Below are positions 26,197 to 55,882 of a stretch of 64,000 bases of DNA, piece by piece. The stretch is taken from assembly GCA_934101645.1 (NCBI GenBank), contig CAKORX010000001.1, forward strand, positions 81,051 to 145,050. Reading direction: 5' to 3'. The position numbers were made by a program, and so were the translations under genes. The DNA comes from an uncultured Bacilli bacterium. Its GTDB lineage: Bacteria > Bacillota_I > Bacilli_A > RF39 > UBA660. The notes under the pieces were generated by a model that was not told the origin of the DNA, did not search any database, and was given only the letters and a program-made list of their open reading frames with translations. Positions within the stretch are counted from its first letter, which is position 1; each line of letters begins with the position of its first letter.

Positions 26197-26220
26197 TTTT
26201 TCTTACTCCTTTTTGATTAA

Positions 26221-26481
26221 TTATTGACCTACTGTACAATCACATTGAATAGTGTCTTCGCTAATATTCATACCAGCAGCACTATCAGCATCTGTGTAAT
26301 AATGGCATTCTTGAGTACCATTATCACATGCAGTACATTGTACTGCAGCATGACAATAAGTTCTTGCTCTAATAGCGTTTCTTAAAGCGGGATATAAGAA
26401 TACTGTGAATAATGTTAGTATAGCAGCAATTGCAACTACAGTTATAACAGTGTTACTTAATTCACCTGTAGCTTCCTTCAT
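26221..26481 (-). CDS. Flp-type pilin-like small protein with a Cys-rich C-terminus
   Basis: 86 aa. The N-terminus MKEATGELSNTVITVVAIAAILTLF is followed by 8 Cys in the C-terminal 50 aa. Confidence 0.55.
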   Translation of the reverse strand: MKEATGELSNTVITVVAIAAILTLFTVFLYPALRNAIRARTYCHAAVQCTACDNGTQECHYYTDADSAAGMNISEDTIQCDCTVGQ

Positions 26482-26551
26482 ATATTTAATCCTCCTTTAT
26501 TGTATATTTTTATTATAACAACATTTTATTTAATTATCAATATATTTTACA

Positions 26552-27343: not shown

Positions 27344-27344
27344 A

Positions 27345-28247: not shown

Positions 28248-28259
28248 ATAAACTCCTTT

Positions 28260-29402: not shown

Positions 29403-29424
29403 AAATAATCACTCCCTTTTATTT

Positions 29425-30195: not shown

Positions 30196-30314
30196 TTTTA
30201 TCCTCCATATTGATAATCTTCTACTATCAATTAAAATTATAGCAATTTTTAAAAATATTTTCAATAACATATCATAAAAAAAGACACATTTTTATTCTCG
30301 TGTCTTTTTGGTTT

Positions 30315-31463: not shown

Positions 31464-31475
31464 TTCATACCCTCC

Positions 31476-34400: not shown

Positions 34401-35261
34401 ATCCTCATTACTACTTACTGGGTCCCAACCTTCCACACTGTCATTAAAAGTTTTAGAAACCCCAAGGAATTTAACAGTAGCTCCATTTTTGGCTATTATT
34501 TCTGGTTCCTTAGTTAATTTAAAATATTCATCTGTACTTGTACCAGTTATATTGTTAATATCTAACTTGATTGAAACTATTTTTGTATAAGTAATTGTAC
34601 CATTCTCGGTAACTTTATTAATTTGACCTTCTTCGCCTTTTTCTACTTTAGTAGCCTTATTATCTTTAGAGTATTCTGCAGCATAATTTAAAGCTTTAGT
34701 TAAAATTTCTTTTACAGGAGAAGCTGCACTTGCATTACCAGCATACGCAGCAGTTGTAGTGACTTTCGCGCCGCCGTAAGCATTATAGGCTTTACTAAAC
34801 TCTTCGTCCTTCAAAAATTCTTTAACAAGAGCTCCTTCTTGGCTTACAAAGGCAGGATCATTAGAATTTTCAAATCCAGGTTGAATAACATCAGTAAGAA
34901 TTCTTAGTGCATAATGTTTAACATTATATTGGTTTGAATTATTCATTATGTACAAAGCCGCATAATCATATTTTGCAACAGTCGAACTTGTTGATGAAGG
35001 TAAAAGCCTTCCAACAACAAAATTTGAACCGTTAGGTGAATTTCCTCTGTCTATACAAAATGCCTCAAAGCTTTTTCCTGTTGAACTCTGAGTTGCCTTT
35101 GATATAGAATAACCCATATTACTAGGAAAGCCAAGGCCAGAATCATGTGAATTATGATCGTTACTAATTGTAAATGATTCACCCATTTTAAAGGCATAAA
35201 CATTTGGAACAAATATTAAAGTGAAAATAAATATAAATAATAATTTTGATATTTTTTTCAT
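31476..35261 (-). CDS. Very large secreted Cys-rich protein (1261 aa) of unknown function, a candidate pilus-associated adhesin or substrate
   Basis: Signal peptide MKKISKLLFIFIFTLIFVPNVYA. No C-terminal TM or sorting motif. Contains about 70 Cys. Only 1 nt separates it from the upstream gene, so it is operonic. Confidence 0.7.
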   Translation of the reverse strand: MKKISKLLFIFIFTLIFVPNVYAFKMGESFTISNDHNSHDSGLGFPSNMGYSISKATQSSTGKSFEAFCIDRGNSPNGSNFVVGRLLPSSTSSTVAKYDYAALYIMNNSNQYNVKHYALRILTDVIQPGFENSNDPAFVSQEGALVKEFLKDEEFSKAYNAYGGAKVTTTAAYAGNASAASPVKEILTKALNYAAEYSKDNKATKVEKGEEGQINKVTENGTITYTKIVSIKLDINNITGTSTDEYFKLTKEPEIIAKNGATVKFLGVSKTFNDSVEGWDPVSSNEDLSQKLSDSDRKGTLYLGFSLTLTKEDKYDDADEEDSEEDCSVSIKIEYEYTSAFSGARISPKGETSKDSKIQRFLVSSTEPVNGDFTLNTQLCSDTKCQPTVTIPTICEPGDSDNLVKYDENDIEEYLDYEFREAYNPDTKTYNIKKCLLKKDSKDIADNSYKYVDATNAQAVQDNPYCEVRCKEDYKFGVPYKKTAEAGRYFQISVKIKGQQDCYTTKIDKDQYSKDVVEKQKEIVDAYNEWLYYYENLTFVDKTETWIKDTSQEIKCSDDEGADVEYKYYINHSNKFIKYTVEDDGKKITFSKGNPSDVFSDTNMGNKSYFGKEDSSKDPMCISAKSDWESQKSGFEEKRNAAKAKITKAIEELKEIVDKYNSCGDDKDYTSVSGDTTKKLNWDMVYVYDPYVKYSYQEPEPGNNSVSKWINEVQGLSCEKGTCDIMISPDEKVQAEVCASGSANCEQATQVEDIDGNIHDTTWRCDGEVNNAYDTCDGSTEISYDKEHYFVCDVPESDEGEITCSNTSNDSEFPVTKIKYVHKIASSIGTYNTARVYFSGHDDGNIKIANQTEMENYDRVDGLPVGINTAKGVYYYILTLDNIGTFYSTSPTLGRIFGTSSDSMSNYYIDKGIRKSETTTTNDNSGITLDGNQYACTYEVSQSECVDSSGKSHYKTECNKDEDWDTCKERLCPASSEARYCVMESKGYYVCDNNYFDSTCQKMNSRQEALAAVGCTPGEQCERNYNCCPNCVVECIDCVVTREDPNTPSKPSYDFRPVSPGNLFPTDRVVGFNWETNANVYGNKLVARKAGDTRTEITKRATGETGQGSGGSSGVPTVEKYTLKVTMDTDMITKIREYNKEQGTYNNDTLKCEDYVLTGYDENRCKKNGYSFNDTDKTCRMSNIFCYSTFVDKLLNDDFGGKVEMANKDGRTKNKENFSTIYTGPAGTMSDVVTNDYWTIYKFSSLDTNGDGIPDVGPSWK

Positions 35262-35262
35262 A

Positions 35263-35988
35263 TTATATTATGTCCTTTCTTTTTTTCTTGCTAATTATTA
35301 TATAACCAGTTGCTCCAGCAATGATTACACAAGTTCCAATTATAAATATAGTTTTATTTTTCTTAACAAATTCCCATAATTTTTGAAAAAAAGTCTTATT
35401 TTTTTCTTCTTCTTGTCTTTCTTTATCCTCTTTATAATCCTCAATTTTATTTACAAAATCTTCAAATCCAGAATCAGTATATGATACATATTTATTGCAC
35501 ATATAAAACTCAGGATTCTCTTTGCAATAACCATAAGAAGAATATAAATTATATCTTGGTGTTGTTAAATAAAATGTTCTATTAAGTGTACCCTTACAAT
35601 CTGTTTTATCAGAATTGTATACATTAAAAGTAAATGTATGTATTGTCATTATATCTTCAAGATCAAAAGATATTATTCCATTTACAGCATTTTTACTTGT
35701 GAAAGTTTTATTAAATCCATTATCACCTTTTACAACTACATAAAAGTTTTCGCTTACATTTAATAATGATATTTTGAAGTAACTATACGATAAATCGCAA
35801 TCATTTTGTCCATCTGCACAAGTATATTTACTACGATCAAGTTCTGCAATTTGTTCTTCATATATTGCTTTAATCGTTGCAGCCTCACTATTAAGTTGTG
35901 CCTGCTGTTCATACGAGCACGCCGCATCTACATTGAAGCTAAAAAGTAGCATCAATAACATAAGAAAAAAATATTTTGTTTTTTTCAT
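35263..35988 (-). CDS. Secreted protein with a C-terminal TM anchor. It is the first gene of the Tad-like operon.
   Basis: Signal peptide ending NVDAA, a Cys-containing ectodomain, and a C-terminal TM with a KKKRK tail. Confidence 0.6.
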   Translation of the reverse strand: MKKTKYFFLMLLMLLFSFNVDAACSYEQQAQLNSEAATIKAIYEEQIAELDRSKYTCADGQNDCDLSYSYFKISLLNVSENFYVVVKGDNGFNKTFTSKNAVNGIISFDLEDIMTIHTFTFNVYNSDKTDCKGTLNRTFYLTTPRYNLYSSYGYCKENPEFYMCNKYVSYTDSGFEDFVNKIEDYKEDKERQEEEKNKTFFQKLWEFVKKNKTIFIIGTCVIIAGATGYIIISKKKRKDII

Positions 35989-37586: not shown

Positions 37587-37874
37587 TTATAAAAATTCCA
37601 CTATGTTAATATTTTTCTTTAATTTTTCAATTAAATCAGCTTTTTCATATTTAGCAAATATTGATTTAAAATTACTACTATCCATTAAGAACATATCATA
37701 ATACTTTATAAATATATCTTGATAGTTTGTTACTCCTAAATCTTTTAGAAATGAAAGATTCTCGGTAACTAATTTTCTTTGTTCTTTAATAAGTTCAATG
37801 AATTTTTCTGGTGTATTTTCTTCAAAATATGCAACATCATCTTTACTAAATCCTATTTTTTCTAAAAATTTCAT
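37587..37874 (-). CDS. Hypothetical 95-aa protein sharing a helical module with the two upstream genes
   Basis: Its ATG overlaps the stop of the upstream ORF (ATGCTGCA). It resembles the C-terminal region of the 412-aa protein (K-LLE-LGY...EKL). Confidence 0.5.
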   Translation of the reverse strand: MKFLEKIGFSKDDVAYFEENTPEKFIELIKEQRKLVTENLSFLKDLGVTNYQDIFIKYYDMFLMDSSNFKSIFAKYEKADLIEKLKKNINIVEFL

Positions 37875-38749
37875 GCTGCACTCCTTACATTATTCATACT
37901 TTCTTCTTGAACTAATTTTAATTCAGTATCAATTGCTTTGTATATCTTAACTTTTTCTTCATCAGTTAAATTCTTTTTAAATGTTAAAGTATAATAAATT
38001 ATTTCTCTTTCATCAGTAATACCACTAGCAAGTAATTTAATCATATTATCTGATTTAGTTCCATCAATTTCACTTCCATAATTAAGTGCCTCTAATACAT
38101 GTCTTAAGTGAAGTGATAAATCTTCATATTTAGCAAGCATTTCATCAGTTAGACGAATTGTTTGATCTTTTAATAATGCTAATAAATATGGATTAGTTTC
38201 AGCTTCAACATTTTTTTCCGTTTCATTACTTACAGGCTCAGTTTTAGTACTAATCTCAGTATTTACACTAGGACTAGGTACATTATTTACTTCTTGAGTT
38301 TTTTGAACATTACTCTCTTTTACTGAAGGCTCTACTTTTTTTACTCCTTCACCAAATTTTCTTTCAAAATCCCTTTTATTAAAAATCAATTTATTATATT
38401 TACCACTTTCAGATCTTACTGGAATACCATTTTTTAAACAATATTCAAGTCTTATAGTGCACTCTTTAGAATTAATGCGTGTTGGATCTTCTACAAAAGC
38501 TTGTAAATGACCAAGTGATTCCATTTTACTAACCTGAGATTTAATAAAATCAAATGGATTTGCAAAAATCTTAAATTCAGATGGTTTAGTTATATTAATA
38601 CCCTTACTCTTCAAGTAATTTACTATAGTAGTTAAATCTTCATAAGATACTACATCGTCAGTTATACTAGCGTAAAATTTAAATAAAGTTTTATAATTTT
38701 CTGGAGTTAGTGATAAAACTTTAATTTTTTCTACAAGACTACTACTCAT
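37871..38749 (-). CDS. Hypothetical 292-aa protein
   Basis: Long ORF with no TM. A Ser/Thr/Glu-rich central linker separates two helical regions. Confidence 0.55.
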   Translation of the reverse strand: MSSSLVEKIKVLSLTPENYKTLFKFYASITDDVVSYEDLTTIVNYLKSKGINITKPSEFKIFANPFDFIKSQVSKMESLGHLQAFVEDPTRINSKECTIRLEYCLKNGIPVRSESGKYNKLIFNKRDFERKFGEGVKKVEPSVKESNVQKTQEVNNVPSPSVNTEISTKTEPVSNETEKNVEAETNPYLLALLKDQTIRLTDEMLAKYEDLSLHLRHVLEALNYGSEIDGTKSDNMIKLLASGITDEREIIYYTLTFKKNLTDEEKVKIYKAIDTELKLVQEESMNNVRSAA

Positions 38750-38761
38750 AAATTCTCCTTT

Positions 38762-40000
38762 CTAATAAGCAATTAATGGAACATTTTTAGGTTCTAAACC
38801 ACTTTGATTTAATAAATTAATTGCATCACTTAAACCCTTTAAATCGTATTTAGTTAATACTGCAGGATTTAAATATATATCTTGTGGCATTTTTCCAATG
38901 CTTGTTAATTTTTCTATTTTATTTGGCATTTCTTTGTCATAAAGAAGTTCTACATTATCAGCAAAGAAATCCAAAGTTATTTTTAATGATTTAATATATT
39001 CTGTATTTTTTCTAATTGTATCTTCATCATAATTTGCAAGCAATTTTTCAAAATCATTACTTGTAAAATCTAAATAATCATATCCAAGTGACTCTAATAA
39101 TTTAATTAATGATTCTTTAGTAGGTTCATCTTTGGATTTTTCTTTAGAAGGTTCTACACTATTAGTATTAATTTCAGATATAACTGGTGTTTCTGTTTTT
39201 GTTGCATCTTCAATATCTTTCATAAAATCAAACTTAAATGTATCAATTGATTCTGGTTTAACTACAGGTTCTACGTCAATTACTGGAGTTTTAGTTTCTT
39301 TTGCTTCCTTAAAAACATCACTAATTGATTTTCCTGATTGACGATTTTTATAACTGCTTTCATATTCGAATAATCCATCTTCTGGGAACATCAATAGTTT
39401 AGCGGCTTCTCTTTGTTCTTCTTCAGAAAAATTAAATTTTTCTAATAATGAAGTAATTTCATCTCTTGTAATATTTATATTACCTTCTAAAGCAAGTTCA
39501 AAATATTTATTTAATCTTTCTTGATTTGATAAAGCTTCATCTTTCCTAATTCCAAGTTCTTCAATCTTAGTTGTTGCTTTATTCATTTCATCTTCAACTA
39601 AAACAAGTTCTTTTTCTGCTTTATCTTTTTCAGATGCAAATTCTTCTAAAGTTTTAGGTAATTTTACATCTAACTCTTTTTTTAATTCATTTGGGTCAAA
39701 AGCAATACTAAGTTCCTTTAAAACGTTAACGAAATCATCTCTTCGAATAGTTTCTAAAGCATTTTTAAAACTCTCGCCCTCTTTTGCAAGTACTTCTTTT
39801 TCGCTAGTAAGTTTTTCAATTTGTTCTTGAAGTTCTGTAGTTCTTTTACTAGTTCTTTCTTTTGTTTTTACTGCTTCATCTTTTTCCTTAGCCATTGATA
39901 CTAGGATAACACTATCTTCTCCTCGTAAGTTATATAACTTATCAAGAAGCATTCTCATCTCTGTATTCAAATTTCTCATTGTCTTCACACCCTTTATCAT
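38762..40000 (-). CDS. Hypothetical 412-aa coiled-coil protein
   Basis: Long ORF whose N-terminal ~200 aa are strongly coiled-coil (E/K-rich heptads). It is the first gene of a three-gene block. Confidence 0.55.
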   Translation of the reverse strand: MIKGVKTMRNLNTEMRMLLDKLYNLRGEDSVILVSMAKEKDEAVKTKERTSKRTTELQEQIEKLTSEKEVLAKEGESFKNALETIRRDDFVNVLKELSIAFDPNELKKELDVKLPKTLEEFASEKDKAEKELVLVEDEMNKATTKIEELGIRKDEALSNQERLNKYFELALEGNINITRDEITSLLEKFNFSEEEQREAAKLLMFPEDGLFEYESSYKNRQSGKSISDVFKEAKETKTPVIDVEPVVKPESIDTFKFDFMKDIEDATKTETPVISEINTNSVEPSKEKSKDEPTKESLIKLLESLGYDYLDFTSNDFEKLLANYDEDTIRKNTEYIKSLKITLDFFADNVELLYDKEMPNKIEKLTSIGKMPQDIYLNPAVLTKYDLKGLSDAINLLNQSGLEPKNVPLIAY

Positions 40001-40043
40001 ATAAAAATTATAGCATAAAAAAAAGGCATATGTAAACTACCTT

Positions 40044-41699
40044 TTAATTATTTTTTCTTAATTTAGTAATTATATAGCCTATTGCCAAAATGCTTAACGT
40101 AAATGTTGTAAAGTATACAGTTATATTATCAAGTGTATTTGGATTACTTAAATTATCGCTTGCCAAAATGTAATTACTAAAATGATTTGTTTTAAATGAA
40201 AGATATTTAACTCCATCAACATTCGTCTGTTCAACCTTATATTTTTCAATACTTCCATCATCATTAATGTAAAGCATTACTAGTCCATCAGAACTTTTAT
40301 CATATGGAATTAATACTTCAGTAACATCATTAAAATTACTAATAATTTTATCTAAAATGTCTGAATATAATTTTAAACTATATCCATCTACTGTTTTATA
40401 ACCTTTTTTAGTAAGAATATTAATTTCTTCATCAGAAAGTTTATAATTATCACTTATTAATTTAGCATCTAAAGGAACATTACTAGCTTTTGTTTTTAAA
40501 ATTATTCCTGTTTTAGTATCTACTGATGAAATAACTCCAAATTTACTAGAGTACTCTTCAGGCATTTGTAAAATACCAATACAATATTTTTTATCATTAA
40601 CTGTAAGAACATAAGGAAGTGTTGTAATAAGTTCATCCTTATCTTTATAGTAATTAATTATGCTCTCATTACTACTACCAGATTTTAATTTTTCATATTC
40701 TTTTTCAAAATTAGTATTTACAAGTTCATAGTATTTCTTTGTATTAATTCCCATTGTAAGAAATAATACTTCTTCAACAGGAAGTGCTTCATTTTCCCAT
40801 TCTTCAATACTAAAATCACTTTCAACTTTAACATTAATATCTGGATTATTTATATATTTTTTTAAACTATCTTCTAAAACTTTTGCATAATCTTTTACAT
40901 CAGTTCCAACTGGTACATAAAACATATTTGATTGATAAAAGCCATTAAATGTAAAGCCATAGTAAATTCCATTATATTTTACAAATGTAAAACCATCAGC
41001 AATACCAGTAAGTGAAATACCTCTTCTTGTTTCTTCAAATGAAATTGAAAAATCAAAATCAGGATTTTTTTCAACAACATTTTTTACTTGAGCAAATTCT
41101 TTAAGTGATCTTTTCGGAGAAAAAAACGTAGTTGTATCACTTTCATAATTAATTAAATGATTTATCATATCTTTGTCTGCAACATTAAATGTTCCAAATA
41201 ATTCATTTGTTATTAAATCAACCTTTTTTGTAATATTTTCATTACCACTTACTTCTTCATAAGTTACATCTAATGTATATTTATCATGTACTTCATTTTC
41301 AAAGCTAGTGCCATAGTAAACCATTACTTCACAAAAATCTTTATCTGCAATCTGCATTGTATTACCATAATAATAATTATCACCTTTTCTATAACATGCA
41401 GTATCCATACCTAATACATTTTCAAAATCAACTATGTTATATAAGTCATCACGAAATAAGTATTCAAAAAATTTATTATTTAAAAATTCTTTTTCATAAT
41501 TACTGCCATCATATTCATTTGCCTTTAACCAATTATAATTTTTTTCAACCATTGAATCCAAATTTGTATACTTAAATGAAAATACATGGTTTTCCAAAAT
41601 ATTTTTATTTTCTCGCCTGCTTTCCTCAATTGTTTTTGCGTTAACACTAGTTATTAAAAACAAACTTACAAATAAAACTCTTAAAATTTTTTTCATCAC
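40044..41699 (-). CDS. Secreted surface protein with a candidate sortase-B-type sorting signal (NPNTL plus TM plus KLRKNN)
   Basis: Signal peptide MMKKILRVLFVSLFLITSVNA. The C-terminus reads LSNPNTLDNITVY, then a hydrophobic stretch, then KLRKNN. Confidence 0.55.
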   Translation of the reverse strand: MMKKILRVLFVSLFLITSVNAKTIEESRRENKNILENHVFSFKYTNLDSMVEKNYNWLKANEYDGSNYEKEFLNNKFFEYLFRDDLYNIVDFENVLGMDTACYRKGDNYYYGNTMQIADKDFCEVMVYYGTSFENEVHDKYTLDVTYEEVSGNENITKKVDLITNELFGTFNVADKDMINHLINYESDTTTFFSPKRSLKEFAQVKNVVEKNPDFDFSISFEETRRGISLTGIADGFTFVKYNGIYYGFTFNGFYQSNMFYVPVGTDVKDYAKVLEDSLKKYINNPDINVKVESDFSIEEWENEALPVEEVLFLTMGINTKKYYELVNTNFEKEYEKLKSGSSNESIINYYKDKDELITTLPYVLTVNDKKYCIGILQMPEEYSSKFGVISSVDTKTGIILKTKASNVPLDAKLISDNYKLSDEEINILTKKGYKTVDGYSLKLYSDILDKIISNFNDVTEVLIPYDKSSDGLVMLYINDDGSIEKYKVEQTNVDGVKYLSFKTNHFSNYILASDNLSNPNTLDNITVYFTTFTLSILAIGYIITKLRKNN

Positions 41700-41811: not shown

Positions 41812-42786
41812 TTGAAAAAAGTATTTTATAGTTTTTTAACTTTATTAATTATCATCATTTGCTTATTAATATTTTTGCCTAAAAAAGAAAATAAAAATAT
41901 TAAAACAATTAAACTTGCAGAAGTTACACATTCAGTTTTTTATGCTCCAATGTATGTTGCTATTGAAAATGGTTATTTTGAAGAAGAAAATGTAAAAATT
42001 GATTTAATATTAACACCTGGTGCTGATAAAGTAAGCTCGGCTGTACTTTCTGGTGATGTAAATATAGGTTTTGCTGGAGCTGAAAGTGCTATATATATCT
42101 ACGAAAAAAATGAAAAAGATTATTTACAGATTTTTGCAGGACTTACAAAAAGAGATGGTCAATTTATTATTTCTAAAAATAAAAATGACAATTTTAAATT
42201 AACTGACCTTTATGGTAAACAAATTTTAGTAGGAAGATCATCTGGCATGCCGGCATTAAACTTTTTAAACGCACTTAAAAAAGAAGGTATTGATGAAAGC
42301 AAAATAAATATTAATTACAGCGTAGACTTTGCTTCATTATCCGGAGCATTTATTGGTTCTAAAGAATATCACTATGTTAACTTATTTGAGCCAAATGCCT
42401 TAAAACTTGAAAATGGGGGTTATGGACACGTTGTGGCAAGTATTGGTCTTCTTTCTGGAGAAATGCCATATACAACGTTTTATGCTAAAAAAAGTTATAT
42501 TGAAAATAATAGCGACATAATAAATAGTTTTAGAAATGCTATTAATAAGGGACTAAAGTTTGTAAAAGAAAATGATGAACAAACAATTGCCAAAAGTATT
42601 CTTAAACAATTTCCAGATACTTCATTAAATGATTTAACAAAAATTGTAAAAAGATATAAAGATGCCGATTCATTTTTAGAAAGTACTTATATAAGTGAAA
42701 ACTTACTTGAAAATCTCGAAGATATTATGATTGATAACAATCTTTTAAAAGATTACGTTCCTTACGATAAATTAATTATAAATTAA
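41812..42786 (+). CDS. ABC transporter substrate-binding lipoprotein (NMT1/THI5 / SsuA-like family)
   Basis: N-terminal signal/TM. Overall similarity to the periplasmic-binding fold of NitT/TauT-family SBPs (GADKVSSAVLSGDVNIGFAG...). No permease or ATPase lies adjacent. Confidence 0.55.
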   Translation: MKKVFYSFLTLLIIIICLLIFLPKKENKNIKTIKLAEVTHSVFYAPMYVAIENGYFEEENVKIDLILTPGADKVSSAVLSGDVNIGFAGAESAIYIYEKNEKDYLQIFAGLTKRDGQFIISKNKNDNFKLTDLYGKQILVGRSSGMPALNFLNALKKEGIDESKININYSVDFASLSGAFIGSKEYHYVNLFEPNALKLENGGYGHVVASIGLLSGEMPYTTFYAKKSYIENNSDIINSFRNAINKGLKFVKENDEQTIAKSILKQFPDTSLNDLTKIVKRYKDADSFLESTYISENLLENLEDIMIDNNLLKDYVPYDKLIIN

Positions 42787-42814
42787 AAAAACACTAAAAT
42801 TTAGTGATTTTTTT
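42785..42814. terminator. Bidirectional intrinsic terminator
   Basis: A7-CACTAAAaTTTAGTG-T7. It overlaps the stop of the minus-strand gene. Confidence 0.6.
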
Positions 42815-44633
42815 ATTTTGACATAGATAAATCATTCTTGCTTAAAAATAAATTCAAATAATCGTTGTTAAGAATTAAAGAAAGATCTAGTTTATCTAAA
42901 TATGAATCAAAACAATTTAAATAAATAGTTAAAGGCACTTCTTTTTCACTACTCAAATTTTCATCAGTAAAAAAAATAACTTCATTATCTTTAAAAAGTT
43001 TTGCTCCGACTTTTCCCTCTTCATTATATCCTATCGATATAGTTATAAAACTGTCAATCATAACATCATTTATATATTTTCCTTGATAAAATATTGGTAT
43101 AGGTTTATATAAATGTGGGCTTACTTCCTTTGTATCCGCAATAATTTGGCTCATAAATCCATCTTCATTATATGAATGTATATTCATAAATGCATATACT
43201 ATAAAGTTATCAGAATCAAAATTAATTTTAAGAGTAAAATAATCTTCCAACGAAATTTCTTTATTTCCCGAAGGAGCACTTACAAACTCATTACCATTTT
43301 CATTATGTGCAGGACAAAATAATCCATTAAAATAGCAAAATTTACTTTCCCCCTTAAAGTTATTTACTTTACCGGCTATATCATTATATGAAATAACGTT
43401 TTCATAACCTAAACTGGCTAAATATTCATTGTAATCTTTTAAATATTTTGTTAATGAAGAATTGTCATTTAAATATAAAAATATTTGTGAAAAACTTTCA
43501 AAAGGTTCATATACGTTATCGGAATTTATATTCACACTTTGTTTAACAATTTTAAATAACTCTTCCATTAAGCTTGGAGCTTTATCAAATGTCATATTTA
43601 CACCAAAGTCTCTTTTTGTTGTATATAAACTATCCAAAACATTTGCAATAAACTCAATATCAATTGTTGGATATGCTTTTTTTAATGAAGATAAAAGTCC
43701 ATCAATTCCATTAATGCTGTAATCACTAATACTATAACCTACTCTTGAGCATAGAAAATCAAGAACAGATTGATAATCTTTATAACTATTATCCCTTACA
43801 ATAAGGTTTGTAATTTTAGCATTCATAGCTTCGCCTAAAGCTTCACATGAATATGGAAAACGATAATAATTTGCTTTATCCGTTTTATAATAAATATTTT
43901 GAGTAGAATGTAAAAGTTCATGATACCTAGTATTTTCACTAGCATTAATTGGATAACATATCTTATTTTCTTTTACACCATAATAACCTAATACAACCTT
44001 ACCAATCGAAGATAAAAATTCTTTATCACTTAATTTTTCAATTTTTATACTTTTAAGGTTCTCATAAAATACTCTAAAATCATAATCTGGACAATTATTA
44101 TATAAAGTGTTAACTAAAGTTATGGCTCTTGCTTTATCATCAATATCAAAACTTTCACAAGCATTTATCGCCTCAATAAGGTTTTCATAAGAAATACTTT
44201 CATAACCCAAAACATTAGTTAACTCTGCGTTACTTGTAATTTTCTTTTCTTCGGGAATATTTAATTCTTCAGTGTAAAATGGAGCTATACTATGAGTTGG
44301 TTCTTCTTCAACTAAAGCTGGTTTTTCTTCATTAACTTTCTCTGGTTTTTTTACTATATCTTTTGTAATCGAAGCAGTAACTGTTGCAAGAAGTGCAACT
44401 GCTACAGCAGTATTTTTTAATAAGGCTTTTTCTTCAAAATTTAACTTATGAATTTCATATGATATAAAACTTTTCTTTTTATTATAAACATTATTTAATA
44501 ATAGGTAATCTTTATATTCAGGATAAAATAATTTAGTATTTTTTACCTCTAAAAAAGCTTTGTGTCCATCATCACAAAGAAAGATTGCAAAGCATTTATT
44601 ATTTAGTTTAATATTAAACATATATTTAAACAT
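42813..44633 (-). CDS. RsgI-like anti-sigma factor: an N-terminal RsgI_N-like cytoplasmic domain, one TM and a large extracellular domain
   Basis: The N-terminus MFNIKLNNKCFAIFLCDDGHKAFLEVK matches the RsgI N-domain pattern (xIxxNKAIVLTxDGEFLxV). TM is AVAVALLATVTASI at ~aa 75-95, followed by a 500-aa ectodomain. Confidence 0.5.
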   Translation of the reverse strand: MFKYMFNIKLNNKCFAIFLCDDGHKAFLEVKNTKLFYPEYKDYLLLNNVYNKKKSFISYEIHKLNFEEKALLKNTAVAVALLATVTASITKDIVKKPEKVNEEKPALVEEEPTHSIAPFYTEELNIPEEKKITSNAELTNVLGYESISYENLIEAINACESFDIDDKARAITLVNTLYNNCPDYDFRVFYENLKSIKIEKLSDKEFLSSIGKVVLGYYGVKENKICYPINASENTRYHELLHSTQNIYYKTDKANYYRFPYSCEALGEAMNAKITNLIVRDNSYKDYQSVLDFLCSRVGYSISDYSINGIDGLLSSLKKAYPTIDIEFIANVLDSLYTTKRDFGVNMTFDKAPSLMEELFKIVKQSVNINSDNVYEPFESFSQIFLYLNDNSSLTKYLKDYNEYLASLGYENVISYNDIAGKVNNFKGESKFCYFNGLFCPAHNENGNEFVSAPSGNKEISLEDYFTLKINFDSDNFIVYAFMNIHSYNEDGFMSQIIADTKEVSPHLYKPIPIFYQGKYINDVMIDSFITISIGYNEEGKVGAKLFKDNEVIFFTDENLSSEKEVPLTIYLNCFDSYLDKLDLSLILNNDYLNLFLSKNDLSMSK

Positions 44634-44711
44634 TTCTTATCACCTTTATTATATATAATATATCAAAAATATTTGCCATTGTATAGTTTACAAATTAAAA
44701 AAACTTAAGAA

Positions 44712-46118
44712 TTACTTTTTCTTAAGTTTTTTTGCTTTTTTATCATCATCAAATATATTAAATATATCCTCTTCATCTTCGAGTTTATCTTTAATTTCAT
44801 TTATTTGATTATCAATATGTTTTTCTGTTATATTACTTTTTACTGGATTTTTCTTACTTTTCTTTTTGGAACTTAATCCTATAATAGCAATCACAGAAAG
44901 CGCAGTTGAAGCAATAAATGCAATTGTTGAATATGTTAAAGATTTATTTTTAGTTTCTAAAGATTTTACATAACTATCATCATATTTAATAGCATTATGA
45001 TCTTTGGTATCATATAAATAAAGACCCTTTTCATTTGTTTCAACATTAATTGCCTTAATTATCTTATATCTATTTTGAGCATCAAGTTCCAAACACTCAA
45101 TTTTGTTTTCTCCTACTAAAACTTCACTTTTCTTGTAATCTTTAATACTTTCATCCATTTTAAGAGGATATAAAGTAAGACTTCCAAAAGTAAGTTCTAC
45201 GTATTTAGTATATTTTCCATCTTCATAAATAAATAAAGAAATATTTGCTTTTTCATCTTTTAAACCAACTAAAGTAAAGTCAGTAACTTCGCTATAAAAA
45301 CCAGGAACTTCCATTTCATTAATTGTTAATTTTTTTTCAATATAACTATTTGGTTTTGATAATAAACTTGCAACTTTTACAACAGTGTATTTTTCATTAT
45401 CAACCATTACTTCTATAGGATTTTTATCAACAACCTCGACATTTAATTTATAAGTTTTTTCACTACCATTTTCGGCAACCACAACTATATTAAAGGAATT
45501 TGTACCAGCACTAACTTCATGCTCTCCATCGCCATTTACACTTGCTTTAGCATCCTCTTTTTCTGCAATAACTTTAATCTTTGTTTCATCTTCATTAACT
45601 TTAACAGTATATTCAGTTGTATCTTTATTAAATGTAGGGCTTATTTCATAACCCTCAACAGTTAAGTTTTTTAAATTATTATTATTTGATAAACTTGCTT
45701 GATATTCAGCATAAGTTATTACTTTAACATTTCTTTTGCCATTACTAACATCGAAAATACTTTCATCCCAACCAAGAACTGCAGAAGCATCTATATAAAA
45801 TGATGCATTACCACTTTTATTTGCTTTAAAAACATATCTATGTGATTTAGATTTAGTATTAGCATTTGGTGCAGCCTCAGCGTAATGCAATTCGACATCA
45901 CTTGATACTAGAGTAAATAAATTTTTATCATAGTTTAAATTGTATTCCCAAGAACCAAGAGCAGATGCTGATGACACGGTTACAGTTACGGTTACATTAT
46001 TTCCTACTATTATTTGTGAAGCGTTAGTACTAACACTTATTGTTGCACTTGCAGCATATACATTACTTGCGCAAAATAAACACATTATTACAATTAAATA
46101 ACTTATTATTTTTTTCAT
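44712..46118 (-). CDS. Membrane-anchored surface protein with an N-terminal cohesin-like domain and a cadherin-like beta-sandwich domain
   Basis: Signal peptide. Cohesin-like region ATISVSTNASQIIVGNNVTVTVTVSSASALGSWEYNLNYDKNLFTLVS. Cadherin-like motif LKNLTVEGYEISPTFNKDTTEYTVKV. C-terminal TM with a K-rich cytoplasmic tail. Confidence 0.55.
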   Translation of the reverse strand: MKKIISYLIVIMCLFCASNVYAASATISVSTNASQIIVGNNVTVTVTVSSASALGSWEYNLNYDKNLFTLVSSDVELHYAEAAPNANTKSKSHRYVFKANKSGNASFYIDASAVLGWDESIFDVSNGKRNVKVITYAEYQASLSNNNNLKNLTVEGYEISPTFNKDTTEYTVKVNEDETKIKVIAEKEDAKASVNGDGEHEVSAGTNSFNIVVVAENGSEKTYKLNVEVVDKNPIEVMVDNEKYTVVKVASLLSKPNSYIEKKLTINEMEVPGFYSEVTDFTLVGLKDEKANISLFIYEDGKYTKYVELTFGSLTLYPLKMDESIKDYKKSEVLVGENKIECLELDAQNRYKIIKAINVETNEKGLYLYDTKDHNAIKYDDSYVKSLETKNKSLTYSTIAFIASTALSVIAIIGLSSKKKSKKNPVKSNITEKHIDNQINEIKDKLEDEEDIFNIFDDDKKAKKLKKK

Positions 46119-46130
46119 TTAAATTCCTTT

Positions 46131-48086
46131 CTAACTAATTGTTGCATATCCTAAAATATGTTTCTGAACTTTTAGTAAATCTTTTATATCTACTACGCCA
46201 TCGCTATTAACATCGGCGGCTTTAGCATAACTTCCCACTAAATTTAAGTATCCTAAAATATGTTTTTGAATTTTTAGTAAGTCTTGAATATTTATATTTC
46301 CATCGCCACTAGGGTCGCCTTTAATAGCTATTATATAAGTTTTAGAATCATTGCCATTTACTAAAGTAAGTTCATCTCCAGTACAAAGTTTACCACTTGC
46401 TCTATTTGCAAAATTTACGGTAACTGTTGATGAAGACTTTTTAAATAGCTCTGTTAAAGATTCCACTGTATAACCAGCACTTAACATAAAAATATTATCA
46501 CTAAGTGGAATTCCACTACTAGCAACTATATCGCTAACAGATGCACTTTCTCCTTCAGTTTTAATAATATTTATAACATATTCTTGAACTTTTTGATTTT
46601 CAGCGGTTACTTTTAATGTTACAGTTGTCTTATCACTATTTAAATTTACTTCTCCAAGACCAGATATTGTTGCTTTACTATTTATTGTTTCAGCTGTAAT
46701 ATTTACTTTGTTAATTCCTTTACCAGTATAATAATTATATGTATAGTTATCATGGCTAAAGCCAATTACATCATTATTATTTATTTTTATATTTTTCAAA
46801 TGATTATTAGGATTTCCACCATTTGGAAGTGCTGCAATTGTTGATGGCATATTATCGTAAACTGGAATTACAAATTTATAAGCTACGCTTCCTATTAAAT
46901 CCATCTCTTTATACCCACTATAAGTAATTGATGCTTCTGTAGCAGCACCCCTTATATTAGTCATATATTGATGTGCATAAGGAGCATAAGCTGAATATGA
47001 ACTAACGTTAAATTTTTGAAAATATGAAGTATCTTGTCCTTTTGAAATATAATTATTTGTAATATAATTTGCTCCACCTTTTATAGCGTTATCAAGATTT
47101 GTCCATGGTCTTAAATAACTTGTACCACTTACGGCCCATACAAGTCCATCATAAACTCCTGTAAAAGCACCTATATTATAAGGATTATATACAGGATAAT
47201 ACTCTTTATTATCATAAATAATTTTAGTTCCTTTTAAAGAGTTTCCTGTATAATTTCCTCCAGTTTCTTGTTTAATTCTACTTGCTAAATATATTGCACT
47301 TGCATTAAAACTTTTTCCAGCCTCATAAATAACGCTTGCTTTTTCTTTAATATCTTTACCCTCTAAAATAGCTTCAACACTACTTATTGTTTGATAGCTT
47401 TCATCAAAGGATAATTTTTCAAACATAAATATAGTTCTTTCATCTAAAAAGTTTCGTGGGTCCATATAGTATGCCACGACTTCTTTGTTTGCAGCATACC
47501 AATCTTTTCCTTCTTTTACTTTAAATGTATCAGTTAAATAATCATAGCTTCCACTTTCAGTTGAAAAGTATCCTTCATAATTAGATTGAATAAAACTTTT
47601 ACCAACAACGCTTTCTTTTTCGGTAGCTATATCAAATGGTAATCCATTTTTATCAGCTGTAAAAGTCCAATTTGGATATTTTTCTTTAAGTGAGCAAAGC
47701 ATTGGCCAGTAAGAATTTGGAAAACCGTTTTGCTCCATTTCTTTTTCACAATCTGTAGTTGCCGAAACTGGTGTATCTTTTACCGTATAAATAGTTACAT
47801 AACTTGCACACACATAGCCAACATCTTTATTTGAATAATATATTTTATACCAACCATCGGAGCAACCTTTTTCATTCGGATACAAATTTTCATCCGCTAA
47901 ATCAAAATTTGCGCTTACACCGAGTTTTTTTATCGAAGAATAATTTGTTCCAGGGCCAGTTCTTAAATTAACATCATTATAATCCACTCTAAGTTTTTTT
48001 GTATCCGCTAAAACGTTACTTGTAAAGGTAAATAAACAAATAATAAATAATAAAATTTTATTTATTTTATTTATTTTATACTTCAT
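46131..48086 (-). CDS. Secreted dockerin-containing protein carrying SH3b, a GH73-like N-acetylglucosaminidase domain, a cadherin-like domain and a C-terminal type-I dockerin
   Basis: Signal peptide. SH3b region LRTGPGTNYSSIKKLG...GWYKIYY. Glucosaminidase-like segment AIYLASRIKQETGGN. Two dockerin Ca-binding repeats, DPSGDGNINIQDLLKIQKHILG and DVNSDGVVDIKDLLKVQKHILG. Confidence 0.7.
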   Translation of the reverse strand: MKYKINKINKILLFIICLFTFTSNVLADTKKLRVDYNDVNLRTGPGTNYSSIKKLGVSANFDLADENLYPNEKGCSDGWYKIYYSNKDVGYVCASYVTIYTVKDTPVSATTDCEKEMEQNGFPNSYWPMLCSLKEKYPNWTFTADKNGLPFDIATEKESVVGKSFIQSNYEGYFSTESGSYDYLTDTFKVKEGKDWYAANKEVVAYYMDPRNFLDERTIFMFEKLSFDESYQTISSVEAILEGKDIKEKASVIYEAGKSFNASAIYLASRIKQETGGNYTGNSLKGTKIIYDNKEYYPVYNPYNIGAFTGVYDGLVWAVSGTSYLRPWTNLDNAIKGGANYITNNYISKGQDTSYFQKFNVSSYSAYAPYAHQYMTNIRGAATEASITYSGYKEMDLIGSVAYKFVIPVYDNMPSTIAALPNGGNPNNHLKNIKINNNDVIGFSHDNYTYNYYTGKGINKVNITAETINSKATISGLGEVNLNSDKTTVTLKVTAENQKVQEYVINIIKTEGESASVSDIVASSGIPLSDNIFMLSAGYTVESLTELFKKSSSTVTVNFANRASGKLCTGDELTLVNGNDSKTYIIAIKGDPSGDGNINIQDLLKIQKHILGYLNLVGSYAKAADVNSDGVVDIKDLLKVQKHILGYATIS

Positions 48087-48162
48087 TACTTCTTACCTAC
48101 CTTTCTACTCATAATACATTATAACATATCTTTCAATAAAAAAAATACTATAAAAGTATTTT

Positions 48163-48954
48163 TTAGCCTAAAGCAACATCTAAAATCATCATTACTGTAA
48201 AACCAATTATTGTAAAAAGTGCCATCAAATCCTTGCATTTATTTGTCTGACTTTCAGGAATAAGTTCTTCGACTACAACATAAATCATTGCTCCTGCAGC
48301 AAAAGACAATAAAAATGGTAATATCATTTGAACTTTTAATACTAAAAGTGCACCAATAACACTAGCAATTGGCTCAACAACGCCTGTAAGAGCACCAATA
48401 ATAAATGATTTCAATGGGCTCATTCCCTCCCGTCTTAAGGGAAGTGATACTGCCGTTCCTTCGGGAAAATTTTGAAGGCCAATACCTAAAGCTAATACTA
48501 AAGATGAAATAAGAGTAGCACCTTCAATGTTATATCTTAATGAACCAAAGGCAACACCTACTGCTAAGCCCTCAGGAATGTTATGTAAAGTAATTGAAAG
48601 TACAAGCATAAATGTTCTTTTTACTTTATTATTACCAGAACTTTTAATTAATTTCGAGGAAACTTTATCACCTATAAAAAGTAGTATTCCCCCGCAAATA
48701 AATCCAAAAGCTACTATAAGTGGTGCATTAAGTTTTAAACTTTCTGCCATCGATAATGCTGGAGAAATAAGTGAGAAAAAAGATGCTGATATCATTACTC
48801 CTGCAGCAAAACCAAGCATTGCATCTAAAACTGTTTTGTTTACTTTTTTAAATAAAAATACTATCGAAGCACCCATAACGGTTATAAGGAATGTAAACAT
48901 GCAGGCAATGAAAGCAAGTAACACATAATTCATATTGGAAAAAAAAGTAATCAT
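48163..48954 (-). CDS. zupT: ZIP-family zinc transporter
   Basis: Polytopic. Signature HNIPEGLAVGVAF and a second FPEGTAVS motif. Confidence 0.85.
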   Translation of the reverse strand: MITFFSNMNYVLLAFIACMFTFLITVMGASIVFLFKKVNKTVLDAMLGFAAGVMISASFFSLISPALSMAESLKLNAPLIVAFGFICGGILLFIGDKVSSKLIKSSGNNKVKRTFMLVLSITLHNIPEGLAVGVAFGSLRYNIEGATLISSLVLALGIGLQNFPEGTAVSLPLRREGMSPLKSFIIGALTGVVEPIASVIGALLVLKVQMILPFLLSFAAGAMIYVVVEELIPESQTNKCKDLMALFTIIGFTVMMILDVALG

Positions 48955-53256: not shown

Positions 53257-54720
53257 ATGAATAGTGATAATAATAACAATAATGCAAATAATCAAGTTGA
53301 TTCTTTAGATTTTACTCCCCCACTTGTGCCTGAACAAAATATAACTAAATACGAACCTCCAGCTCCTCCGAAGAAAAATGTTTTTGCCATTATATTTTCT
53401 GTGATTGGTATTCTTATAGTTCTTGCACTACTATCTGCTTCACTTTATTATTTATTTGTATTTAATAAAAATGGTGAAGAGTCACTAAAAATGGCCATAA
53501 ATGGAGTAACAAGATATGTTGACCTAATTTATAATAAACAAAATGAATATACAAATATTAATTTTTCAAACAACAATGTTAGTGTAATTGGTAATATTAA
53601 TGTTAATAATCCAGATAGTTCAAAAAAATACCTAGCCAATTTTGAATTTGATTTAGATTATCCAAATGAAAAAATAGTTTTCGCTGGATCTTTATTTGAA
53701 AATGCAAATGAACTTATAAATCTCATATATAATTACGATGAAGAAGTATCCTATGTACTTATGAAAAAAGTTTTTAATAAGCCTTTAATCTTGAGCAAAC
53801 AAAATTTATTTACTACATCAAGTAAACAAGTTGTAACAATAAATGATTATTACTTACTTTTTAATAAAACCAAAAACTATGTAATTAATAATTTAAAAAA
53901 TGAAGATTTTGATGTAATATTTGATATTAGCAAAAAAAATGGTTCTTATGTATTTCAAAAAAAAGTTGTTTATCTACTTCAAAATACAGTATTTGATACT
54001 CTTTTAGAGGATACTTTAAATAATATTGAAAATGATGAAGTATATATGGAAAAATTATTTTATATTTTAGAGCAAAAAAATGGCTATCCAAAAGGATATA
54101 ACATGGATAATGTAAAAGAATATTTAAATGAGTTAAAAAATAATTTAATTAGAAATTATGATGGAAATATTGGTATTAATGTGTATACTGACCTATTAGG
54201 AAAAAAGATAAATAAAATTGAACTTGCTCATGCTGGTAAAAAATTATTTTATTATGATAATGGCAACTTTGAAATAAATCTTGATGATGAAAAAAAGATT
54301 AGTTACAATAATAGGACACTTACTTTATTGCAAAAAGATAAAGTTATAGCAACCATTATAGTTAATACTTTTAGTGAAAACTTAATAGACCTTGAGATAA
54401 CTAATCCAGATAACACTCAAAATATTAAAATTAAAATTGATAATAATATTAGTTTTTCTTACGAGCAAACAAATCAGAATATTTTATTAAACATAAATAA
54501 AAAAGAAAAAAACAATTACGAATATAAAATAACTATTAATGATGGTGTTAGTCCTTATGAAATATATGGTGAAATAATTATTAGTGATGAAGGAAAATAC
54601 ACACTATTTGATAAAAAAGATGCGGTAGAATATGACTCACTTACTTATGATGAAAAAATGCAAATTCAAGAAGCTCTTAAACAGCTCGGAGAATTATTAA
54701 ATTTTAAAGCTTTAACCTAA
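53257..54720 (+). CDS. Hypothetical membrane-anchored protein (487 aa) with an Asn-rich N-terminus
   Basis: Poly-Asn N-terminus, a single TM (FAIIFSVIGILIVLALLSASLYYLFVF) and a large extracytoplasmic domain. Confidence 0.5.
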   Translation: MNSDNNNNNANNQVDSLDFTPPLVPEQNITKYEPPAPPKKNVFAIIFSVIGILIVLALLSASLYYLFVFNKNGEESLKMAINGVTRYVDLIYNKQNEYTNINFSNNNVSVIGNINVNNPDSSKKYLANFEFDLDYPNEKIVFAGSLFENANELINLIYNYDEEVSYVLMKKVFNKPLILSKQNLFTTSSKQVVTINDYYLLFNKTKNYVINNLKNEDFDVIFDISKKNGSYVFQKKVVYLLQNTVFDTLLEDTLNNIENDEVYMEKLFYILEQKNGYPKGYNMDNVKEYLNELKNNLIRNYDGNIGINVYTDLLGKKINKIELAHAGKKLFYYDNGNFEINLDDEKKISYNNRTLTLLQKDKVIATIIVNTFSENLIDLEITNPDNTQNIKIKIDNNISFSYEQTNQNILLNINKKEKNNYEYKITINDGVSPYEIYGEIIISDEGKYTLFDKKDAVEYDSLTYDEKMQIQEALKQLGELLNFKALT

Positions 54721-54805
54721 AAAATATGATATTAAAATCATATTTTTATTTTGCACACTAGAAAAATGTAAATTACCTTATTAAAGTTATAAATGAGGTG
54801 ATATA

Positions 54806-55882
54806 ATGGGTCGTAAAGGCGAAAGCATTTACAAAAGAAGTGATGGAAGATATGAAGGAAGATATATTAAGGGAAAATATAAAAATAAAGTCATATATGG
54901 ATATATATATGGAACATCTTATTCAGAAATAAAAGAAAAACTTAGAAACTATGGTAATGTGGAATTTGAAATCGAAGAAATAGATACTTTTAATGAAAGA
55001 ATAGACAACTGGCTTGAATATAAAAAAAGCACTGTTAAGGAATCAACGTATTCAACTTATTATGCGGTTGCAATAAATAAAATAAAACCGATTCTTGGTC
55101 ACTATAAGGTAGTTAATCTAAATAATGAAATAATCGATAAGTTTATCAATAAATTATTAGATAATGAACATTTAAGTATTAATACGATACATGATGTAGC
55201 AAATATTTTAAAACAGATATTTAAATATAATAAAATAACTAATATTGATGTAAAAGCACCCTCAAAAGAGTATAAAAGTATTTCCGTTTTCACTCCTAAA
55301 GATATTAAAAAACTTGAAAGATTTGCTTTAACTTATGATAATAGATTTGTTTTTGGAATTATTTTAAGTTTATATACTGGTATTAGAATCGGGGAACTAT
55401 GTGCCTTAAAAAAAAGTGATTTTGATATAAACCTAATGACTCTTTCTGTAAACCGCACAATAATAAGAGTTAAAAATACAAATAGTCAAAGAAAGACTAA
55501 AGTTATATGTTCAGCTCCAAAAAGTAAAAAATCAATTAGAACAATTCCTATTCCTGATGTTTTGCAAAGTTATTTAATTCATTATTTAAGTGAAATGAAT
55601 GCAGATTACTATTTCCTTACTAACAAAATTAATGCAATTGAACCAAGAAGTTATACAAATAAATATAAAAAGTATTTAAATTATTGGGGTATTAATCATA
55701 AAAAATTTCACACAACAAGACATACATTTGCCACCAAAGCTGACGAAACAAAAATGAGTACTAAAGCTTTATCTGAAATATTAGGTCACTCAAATGCCTC
55801 AATTACTCAAAATTTATATATACACCCATCACTAAAATATAAAAGAGAATGCATAAATACGATTTACACAAAAAAAAGCTGA
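54806..55882 (+). CDS. Tyrosine site-specific recombinase/integrase (Tn916 Int-like N-terminal arm-binding motif)
   Basis: N-terminal GRKGESIYKRSDGRYEGRY. The catalytic region has R...HTTRHTFAT...LGHSNASITQNLYIH (R-H-R-H-Y pattern). Confidence 0.8.
   Translation: MGRKGESIYKRSDGRYEGRYIKGKYKNKVIYGYIYGTSYSEIKEKLRNYGNVEFEIEEIDTFNERIDNWLEYKKSTVKESTYSTYYAVAINKIKPILGHYKVVNLNNEIIDKFINKLLDNEHLSINTIHDVANILKQIFKYNKITNIDVKAPSKEYKSISVFTPKDIKKLERFALTYDNRFVFGIILSLYTGIRIGELCALKKSDFDINLMTLSVNRTIIRVKNTNSQRKTKVICSAPKSKKSIRTIPIPDVLQSYLIHYLSEMNADYYFLTNKINAIEPRSYTNKYKKYLNYWGINHKKFHTTRHTFATKADETKMSTKALSEILGHSNASITQNLYIHPSLKYKRECINTIYTKKS

Follow-up and report, generated by a model that had tools for sequence, protein, structure and literature searches.

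A conserved two-gene unit that may tether a peptidoglycan hydrolase to the membrane through a single cohesin-dockerin contact in uncultured gut Bacilli

We analyzed a 64,000-nucleotide stretch of contig CAKORX010000001.1 (assembly GCA_934101645.1, positions 81,051 to 145,050, forward strand) from an uncultured Bacilli bacterium of the RF39 lineage; this stretch is henceforth referred to as the window. Two adjacent minus-strand genes, P1 and P2, are predicted to encode a secreted peptidoglycan hydrolase with a C-terminal dockerin and a membrane-anchored protein with an N-terminal cohesin-fold domain. We propose, with a probability of roughly 60%, that they form a two-gene unit that tethers the hydrolase to the membrane of the cell that produces it via one cohesin-dockerin contact of a non-cellulosomal kind. 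Cohesins and dockerins outside cellulosomes are well known, and cohesin-dockerin pairs have mostly been studied as the glue of fibre-degrading complexes. Here the two modules, strictly conserved and present once per locus, would join a peptidoglycan hydrolase to a stalk in the membrane across hundreds of uncultured gut species. A first-pass annotation of the window correctly recognized the cohesin-dockerin pair and its cargo but erred over a regulator, which it had assigned to the third gene on the same strand, P3.

Features of P1 and P2, with the basis of each call in brackets:
46131-48086, minus strand: P1, 651 aa (open reading frame (ORF) list)
47796-47975, minus strand: SH3b-like domain of P1, residues 38-97 (SH3_3 and PDB 2krs matches)
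46857-47516, minus strand: predicted GH73 catalytic domain of P1, residues 191-410 (PDB 6fxo and 4pi7 matches)
47265-47267, minus strand: codon of the predicted catalytic residue Glu274 of P1 (alignment to Atl)
46563-46799, minus strand: cadherin-like beta-sandwich of P1, residues 430-508 (Pfam match below the cut-off)
46332-46553, minus strand: P1 module without a family match, before the dockerin, residues 512-585 (occupancy of 0.98 in the alignment)
46152-46322, minus strand: dockerin of P1, residues 589-645 (Dockerin_1 match)
44712-46118, minus strand: P2, 468 aa (ORF list)
45714-46052, minus strand: predicted cohesin-fold domain of P2, residues 23-135 (AlphaFold2 model, Foldseek and family profile)
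45435-45674, minus strand: cadherin-like beta-sandwich of P2, residues 149-228 (PF12733)
44943-45416, minus strand: conserved, predicted extracellular domain of P2, residues 235-392, ~160 aa (conserved alignment columns)
44715-44930, minus strand: predicted membrane helix (residues 397-415) and Lys-rich cytoplasmic tail (residues 416-468) of P2 (hydropathy)

The only strongly hydrophobic stretch of P1 is its N-terminal signal peptide (hydropathy). Residues 191-410 match the solved GH73 domains of Staphylococcus aureus Atl (6fxo, E 1.4e-13) and AtlE (4pi7, E 1e-12) as well as the SagB structures 6fxp and 6u0o (E 2e-8). The NCBIfam SagB model was matched at E 6e-13, but with 48.6 bits against a cut-off of 425, and Pfam Glucosaminidase (PF01832) gave no match to P1 at E ≤ 0.1. 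In the alignment, E274 coincides with the Glu of the “LETG” motif of Atl. It is kept in 84 of the 85 members of the P1 family, and Y374, which belongs to a Y-x-T-[ND] motif, is kept in 83. The dockerin scored 41.7 bits in the whole protein against a Dockerin_1 (PF00404) cut-off of 22.9 (E 1.3e-10) and 46.5 bits when the C-terminus was searched in isolation, with a model that spans all dockerin types and so does not separate type I from types II and III. It comprises two EF-hand-like calcium loops, DPSGDGNINIQD and DVNSDGVVDIKD, each followed by a helix of the form DLLK[IV]QKHILGY (LLKIQKHILGY after the first loop and LLKVQKHILGY after the second). These are the only calcium-loop motifs of this kind in a six-frame translation of the window. 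The other modules of P1 are less sharply defined. The SH3b-like region is borderline for SH3_3 (PF08239; 26.4 bits against a cut-off of 27) and matches the SH3 domain of PDB 2krs at E 0.001; the P1 homologue in one related locus has an unmarked SH3_3 match. The cadherin-like match (PF12733) is weak, at 18.5 bits against a cut-off of 24.2 (E 0.0028). This domain cross-matches the cadherin-like domain of P2 in many loci and has an alignment occupancy of 0.52, i.e., it is present in about half of the family. No family match was found for residues 512-585. Taken on these sequence features, P1 reads as a secreted, active-looking GH73 N-acetylglucosaminidase that carries a dockerin.

P2 starts with a signal peptide, and its one C-terminal membrane helix (hydropathy peak of 2.11) is followed by SSKKKSKK. 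Because the signal peptide is combined with a C-terminal helix and then a Lys-rich tail, we infer that P2 is a type-I membrane protein with the cohesin as its membrane-distal tip. A search for homologues of P2 yielded 635 relatives, many of them with a precomputed match to Pfam Cohesin (PF00963), and this model was matched by 16 of 47 diverse homologues that were scanned singly (best E 2.5e-7). When a profile of the N-terminal domain was compared with PDB sequences, 20 of the 22 matches were cohesins, each of them weak (E 0.002-1.2); they include cohesins of types I, II and III and the cohesin of Clostridium perfringens NagJ. The AlphaFold2 model of residues 22-145, based on an alignment of 52 sequences, is all-beta with 10 strands and has a mean predicted local distance difference test (pLDDT) score of 95.9. 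Nearly all the top matches of this model in a Foldseek search of the PDB are cohesins (E 3e-7 to 1e-4), led by 2jh2, 2w1n, 2vo8, 6kgf, 5n5p and 2xdh (E 3e-7 to 1e-5). The best are non-cellulosomal cohesins of C. perfringens (E 3e-7 to 2e-6; template modelling (TM) scores of 0.61-0.69), and the next are cohesins of Clostridium acetobutylicum, Ruminococcus flavefaciens, Archaeoglobus fulgidus and Clostridium thermocellum. We accept, on the strength of the model, that the N-terminal domain of P2 has a cohesin fold, in a short and sequence-divergent form. The cadherin-like domain that follows is clear (PF12733, 40.3 bits against a cut-off of 24.2, E 4e-10) and was matched by 47 of 47 homologues, whereas residues 235-392 had no Pfam or PDB sequence match. 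Separately, we note that PDB chain 7urp_A (160 residues, named “Ribonucleases G and E”) can be aligned, nearly from end to end, with the cohesin-like domain of P2 (E 0.007). The name looks unsuited, and the chain is probably a cohesin-like module.

Most of what the first-pass annotation had said about these two proteins is borne out. This applies to the dockerin of P1, to its GH73-like segment with the catalytic Glu in place, to the description of the cargo as a peptidoglycan hydrolase rather than an enzyme for plant polysaccharide, and to the membrane anchor and cadherin-like domain of P2. The SH3b and cadherin-like calls in P1 survive in part, the first as a match just under the Pfam cut-off with a PDB match beside it, the second as a weak one. 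The cohesin call in P2 holds through the homologues and the predicted fold but not through a direct Pfam match in the window protein.

The two genes are found together almost without exception. A scan of species-representative genomes for P2 confirmed at least 462 stretches, from which 80 loci were taken. An ORF encoding GH73 plus dockerin lies directly upstream of the P2 homologue in 86 of the 87 loci examined, and in the sole exception the contig ends at that point. Across the paired loci, identity to the window P2 goes down to ~39%, and the gene for the dockerin protein is immediately upstream in all P2 relatives at 44-65% identity. Using family-specific Hidden Markov Models (HMMs), we detected one dockerin and one cohesin per locus in the 86-87 related loci and one of each in the window; the counts cover the 64-kb window and the locus regions of the relatives. 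The gene order staphylococcal nuclease homologue-ZIP transporter-P1-P2 is conserved among relatives, and the neighbours are housekeeping genes. The gene 3' of the pair varies. It encodes a 244-aa protein, which in P3's place shows no similarity to P3, or a 66-aa ORF that is followed by a cation ATPase, or a Peptidase_M29 protein.

The pair is very widespread and is documented over hundreds of uncultured Bacilli genomes. Records that bear it are titled uncultured Bacilli, Tenericutes, Mycoplasma sp. CAG:472, Candidatus Onthocola and Candidatus Caccenecus, and their gut sources are human, rabbit, ruminant and chicken. NCBI places the two Candidatus genera in Bacilli incertae sedis, and we take the named genera to correspond to the GTDB order RF39. 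Ten pair-bearing contigs lie in metagenome-assembled genomes titled Muribaculaceae, Methanobacteriaceae archaeon or Bacteroides helcogenes, titles that probably reflect binning errors in the source assemblies. The P1-P2 module is not confined to the low-GC clade, because a contig with 47% G+C from human faeces (MT836697.1, 1-13706; locus L096) has the same two-gene architecture. There, the pair sits between LtaS-like, YfhO and family-2 glycosyltransferase (GT2) genes on one side and ClpC and RadA on the other, and the P2 homologue falls in a cluster of 2,491 members. The record is filed as “UNVERIFIED: Bacteriophage sp.”, and several other faecal “Bacteriophage sp.” records match P1 too. Judged by its sequence, MT836697.1 is plainly bacterial, a chromosome fragment of a gut Firmicute. 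In L096 and in another locus, L004, which belong to distant lineages, the pair is directly downstream of YfhO and GT2 genes, which are teichoic acid glycosylation genes. This neighbourhood is a second link of the pair to cell-envelope biogenesis.

We aligned 85 P1 sequences to assess residue conservation and covariation with P2. No other module of P1 is as conserved as the dockerin, which has a mean major-residue frequency of 0.70 compared with 0.53 for GH73. Its calcium-ligand Asp residues are conserved in 81-85 of the 85 relatives. Both dockerin helices keep D-L-L-x-V-Q-K-x-I-L, within which L-L…Q-K is essentially invariant. Position 10 switches between Ile and Ala in lockstep across the two repeats (I/I in 40 sequences and A/A in 39). 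Type I dockerins with a dual binding mode show such maintained internal symmetry, and by analogy the symmetry of the P1 dockerin may reflect a dual binding mode.

The host organism synthesizes peptidoglycan: the window encodes a VanY carboxypeptidase, an SLT-domain protein and two sortases, and a penicillin-binding protein gene is present in the related locus L004. Tad-like pilus genes also occur in the window. In the mechanism that we propose, P1 would be exported by its signal peptide with an SH3b-like wall-binding domain, the GH73 domain and a calcium-binding dockerin. P2 would likewise be exported and then held in the membrane by its C-terminal helix, with the cohesin on top of a stalk formed by the cadherin-like domain and residues 235-392. 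Binding of the P1 dockerin to the P2 cohesin would retain the GH73 enzyme on the producing cell, inside the wall and at a distance from the membrane that P2 sets. P1 could then act as a housekeeping autolysin in glycan-strand trimming, wall turnover or daughter-cell separation, and the cohesin-dockerin tether would take the place of the LysM, choline-binding, SLH or GW wall anchors of other Firmicutes. If true, this would be a simple and experimentally tractable way to keep a dangerous wall-cutting enzyme on a cell's own surface. It would broaden the accepted role of cohesin-dockerin modules and supply, from commensals of the human gut, a natural pair for 1:1 surface display.

We compared the pair with known systems. 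The closest is a genome-level precedent in Ruminococcus bicirculans, for which one dockerin and one cohesin, linked to a GH73 enzyme, have been described (Wegmann et al. 2014, cited in Ze et al. 2015, PMC4611034). As described, R. bicirculans resembles our case as a non-cellulolytic gut Firmicute with one dockerin, one cohesin and GH73; the pair reported here differs in being documented over hundreds of genomes. Our literature search found nothing on the conservation, membrane anchoring or function of the R. bicirculans pair. Nor did it find an experimental characterization of the present pair, or a paper that describes it in RF39-type bacteria or deals with how it is anchored or what it does.

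The NagH/NagJ-family complexes of C. perfringens (2jh2, 2w1n, 2vo8 and 2ozn) supply the cohesins that are the best structural matches of the P2 domain. They also use cohesin-dockerin contacts outside plant-fibre degradation, to assemble secreted glycoside hydrolases. They differ from P1 and P2 in that cohesins and dockerins are borne by large secreted enzymes, which dock onto one another; no cohesin stalk is anchored in the membrane, and their targets are host glycans, whereas the target that we propose for P1-P2 is the cell's own wall. The C. perfringens dockerins are preceded by FIVAR modules. Cellulosomes, amylosomes and “mucinolysomes” are built from the same two modules with the same logic of docking an enzyme to an anchor. 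In contrast to cellulosomes, the P1-P2 pair has no multi-cohesin scaffoldin and no set of dockerin enzymes and is 1:1 per locus. Its anchor is a membrane helix, whereas cellulosome-type systems use SLH domains or sortase, and no carbohydrate-binding module was detected by Pfam at the window locus.

The closest sequence relatives of the P1 catalytic domain are the GH73 domains of S. aureus SagB and Atl/AtlE. SagB is a membrane-tethered glucosaminidase that trims nascent glycan strands together with a membrane partner, and its NCBIfam name is “peptidoglycan release complex glucosaminidase”. We regard SagB-SpdC as a functional analogy for a GH73 enzyme referenced to the membrane. SagB differs in carrying a membrane helix of its own and in having SpdC, a polytopic CAAX-protease-like protein, as its partner, and there is no cohesin or dockerin.

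The same architecture fits a role as a weapon against other bacteria, which weighs against the autolytic role that we propose. Here the pair would form a surface “lyticome” that displays GH73 outward and lyses neighbours for competition or nutrients. Dockerin-bearing lysozymes and cell-wall hydrolases have been reported in Ruminococcus cellulosomes and discussed in this way (PMC6403190). The cohesin would stand at the distal end of a stalk of ~370 residues, P1 has an SH3b-like targeting domain, and the hosts are small-genome gut bacteria that we consider plausibly dependent on neighbours. However, the pair is single-copy, almost universal and in stable housekeeping synteny across many species, which is more typical of a core autolysin. 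There is no immunity-like gene conserved beside it, as the downstream gene varies, and the anchor is a membrane helix beneath the wall rather than a wall-surface anchor. These features favour the autolysin, and we consider the weapon unlikely.

The tether itself depends on the identity of the P2 tip, and here too some observations count against it. Pfam Cohesin gave no match to the window P2 at E ≤ 0.1, and NCBIfam and PDB sequence searches with the single protein were equally unhelpful for this domain. The domain has ~113 residues, ~25 fewer than typical cohesins, its TM-scores to solved cohesins are moderate (0.61-0.70), and a few non-cohesin beta-sandwiches (complement C3c and TRAP subunits) appear among the Foldseek matches. 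As the module counts are per locus, partners for the dockerin or the cohesin elsewhere in the genome are conceivable. Among the 100 dockerin-P2 residue pairs with the highest mutual information, 54 fall in the cohesin domain, compared with 30 expected from the numbers of columns; this would speak for the contact but is suggestive only, because it comes from 85 sequences and is inseparable from clade structure. The P2 N-terminal domain could be a generic Ig-like spacer, in which case the dockerin would bind a wall polymer, some other protein or nothing; numerous orphan dockerins are known. Against such a spacer, about a third of the P2 homologues match Pfam Cohesin, cohesins (non-cellulosomal ones among them) dominate both the PDB sequence matches and the fold matches, the two genes are strictly adjacent 1:1, and the dockerin helices are extremely conserved. 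A spacer thus seems to us quite improbable, and we continue to read the pair as an enzyme and its membrane tether.

The third gene of the region, P3, was examined in the same way.
42813-44633, minus strand: P3, 606 aa (ORF list)
43830-43922, minus strand: putative zinc site of P3, H238-E-L-L-H242 (43908-43922) and E268 (43830-43832) (invariant residues)

By hydropathy, a single hydrophobic segment (residues 74-92) of P3 precedes ~510 aa of C-terminal sequence, in keeping with the single membrane segment and ~500-aa ectodomain that the first-pass annotation had given it. Its layout is a conserved 55-aa N-terminal domain, the membrane segment, a domain with HExxH…E and a beta-rich C-terminal domain. 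On its own, the protein had no Pfam, NCBIfam or PDB sequence match. Word-indexed homologue searches with the single sequence or a profile returned only three near-identical relatives, whereas an exhaustive HMMER search returned 163 clusters (at 50% identity), mostly full-length. Those with 600-950 aa have about 22-39% identity. An alignment of 50 homologues (21-37% identity) has five invariant columns, which include H238, E239, H242 and E268, and a metallopeptidase-toxin model was weakly matched by 2 of the 50. In the AlphaFold2 model (pLDDT 82), the N-terminal domain is small, confidently predicted and built of beta structure plus helix, the middle domain is helical and the C-terminal domain is beta-rich. 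Foldseek gave no significant match to the model in the PDB. We rejected the top match, the anti-sigma factor DdvA, as noise (E 0.25, probability 0.11, TM-score 0.13). The P3 family consists of unannotated single-pass membrane proteins with an invariant HExxH…E, and from its sequence P3 is a putative membrane-anchored, gluzincin-like zinc metallopeptidase.

Only in the species of the window, or in its closest relatives (loci L006, L007 and L010), does P3 adjoin the pair; it is missing from the neighbourhood in 83 of the 86 pair loci. P3 relatives (including those of loci L009, L090, L092 and L093) were examined in 8 other contexts, and in 4 of these they come directly after a conserved protein of 98 aa and a membrane-anchored GH73 glucosaminidase of ~190 aa. 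Several of these loci are mutually syntenic and hence not independent. One further relative adjoins BacA. Because relatives often adjoin a small GH73 gene, there is a hint that the P3 family works in the cell envelope, possibly with GH73 enzymes. A bolder version of the tether would make the contact an unrecognized form of autolysin control. The P2 stalk would fix the height of the lineage's main GH73 enzyme in the wall, as an analogue of SagB-SpdC made from cellulosome parts. In a large clade of uncultured gut Bacilli with reduced genomes, and in some Clostridia too, it would be indispensable for the wall to mature or for cells to separate. Gluzincins of the P3 type would recur as a second companion of GH73 enzymes, for instance as proteases for processing or release. 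We regard this version as speculative and rather doubtful.

Further features bear on transcription of the region:
48118-48126, minus strand: candidate extended -10-like element TGTTATAAT, 5' of P1 (consensus match)
48133-48166, minus strand: AT-rich hairpin after the ZIP gene and before TGTTATAAT (-6.4 kcal/mol, z -3.4)
44692-44735, minus strand: AT-rich hairpin and U-run over the P2 stop codon (RNA folding)

The start codon of P2 is 12 nt past the stop codon of P1 and is preceded by an AAAGGA ribosome-binding site. The hairpin at the P2 stop codon has 15 bp followed by U7 and a folding energy of -12.8 kcal/mol (z -5.25), and 0 of 200 shuffled sequences were equally stable. It was not picked up by a terminator scan that requires G+C. 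It is likely the terminator of a P1-P2 unit. Because of this hairpin with its U-run and of the promoter-like hexamers between it and P3, the region looks like a P1-P2 bicistron followed by a separate, independent P3 unit. P1, P2 and P3 are indeed consecutive ORFs on the minus strand, as first annotated, but the three-gene operon proposed for them finds no confirmation.

The first-pass annotation had joined the three genes in a miniature cellulosome-style display, with P3 as an RsgI-type anti-sigma factor that acts with a SigI. The enzyme, its anchor and the non-cellulosomal context remain of this picture, which is overstated given one cohesin, one dockerin, no scaffoldin and no carbohydrate-binding module. 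P3 follows the pair on the same strand and is built, in gross terms, like many anti-sigma factors (a small cytoplasmic N-terminus, one membrane segment and a large ectodomain), and this gross membrane topology is all that it shares with the RsgI/SigI systems of Bacillus and cellulosome-producing clostridia. RsgI_N (PF12791) was matched by 0 of 50 full-length P3 homologues at E ≤ 0.01 and by 0 of 33 N-terminal domains at E ≤ 10, and a profile of the N-terminal domain found nothing relevant in the PDB. No sigma-70 or extracytoplasmic function (ECF) sigma factor domain was found in the flanking genes or among the scanned ORFs of ≥ 120 aa in the window, so there is no adjacent sigI, and the ectodomain is gluzincin-like rather than carbohydrate-sensing. 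With the terminator-like hairpin between P2 and P3 and the absence of P3 from nearly all pair loci, we consider such a sensor very improbable. Removing this false lead exposes instead an unannotated, zinc-peptidase-like membrane family that is often found beside GH73 genes.

We also reject the idea of P1 as a prophage or phage endolysin in a mobile locus, which has next to no chance of being right: tblastn finds P1-like sequences in human-faecal “Bacteriophage sp.” records and there are weak GH73 matches in Staphylococcus phages, but the matching records are unverified bacterial fragments (the best, MT836697.1, encodes LtaS-like, YfhO, GT2, ClpC and RadA proteins), the window neighbourhood is housekeeping with conserved synteny, and no holin gene lies beside P1, which carries a Sec signal peptide.

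The window has a G+C content of ~27%. On the minus strand, upstream of P1, are the ZIP transporter gene and the staphylococcal nuclease homologue (Pfam). The next ORF 3' of P3 is a gene for an NMT1-type binding protein on the plus strand (41812-42786), convergent with P3. The rest of the window is ordinary chromosome with tRNA synthetases, UvrA/UvrB, Lgt, SUF genes and one integrase. Past P3 and the NMT1-type gene, the minus strand carries three genes without a family match (37871-41699). They encode proteins of 551 aa (with a signal peptide and a hydrophobic C-terminal end), 412 aa (coiled-coil-like) and 292 aa, and the trio is syntenic in the related contigs L006 and L007.

Three further regions of the window drew our attention. 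Tandem paralogues of 536 aa on the minus strand (7746-9356 and 9559-11169) are 84% identical overall, and their C-terminal ~240 residues differ at one position, which suggests recent gene conversion. They have hydrophobic N-terminal segments and no Pfam match, are flanked by the two sortase genes and adjoin a 1063-aa VWA-domain protein (3555-4370, 4402-7593 and 11227-11952). The region 3555-11952 could represent a pilus or adhesin locus that depends on sortase. A minus-strand gene run at 25450-35988 encodes a T2SSE-type ATPase (28260-29402), an RcpC/CpaB-like protein (29425-30270), a protein with DUF5411 and Peptidase_C39_2 (30315-31463), a 1261-aa protein without a Pfam match (31476-35261) and several small unannotated ORFs, and resembles a Tad/Flp-type pilus cluster. 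Finally, the phage-type integrase gene (54806-55882, plus strand) comes after a 487-aa ORF without a Pfam match. The sign of the GC skew flips in this region (53257-55882), which may be the edge of a mobile element.

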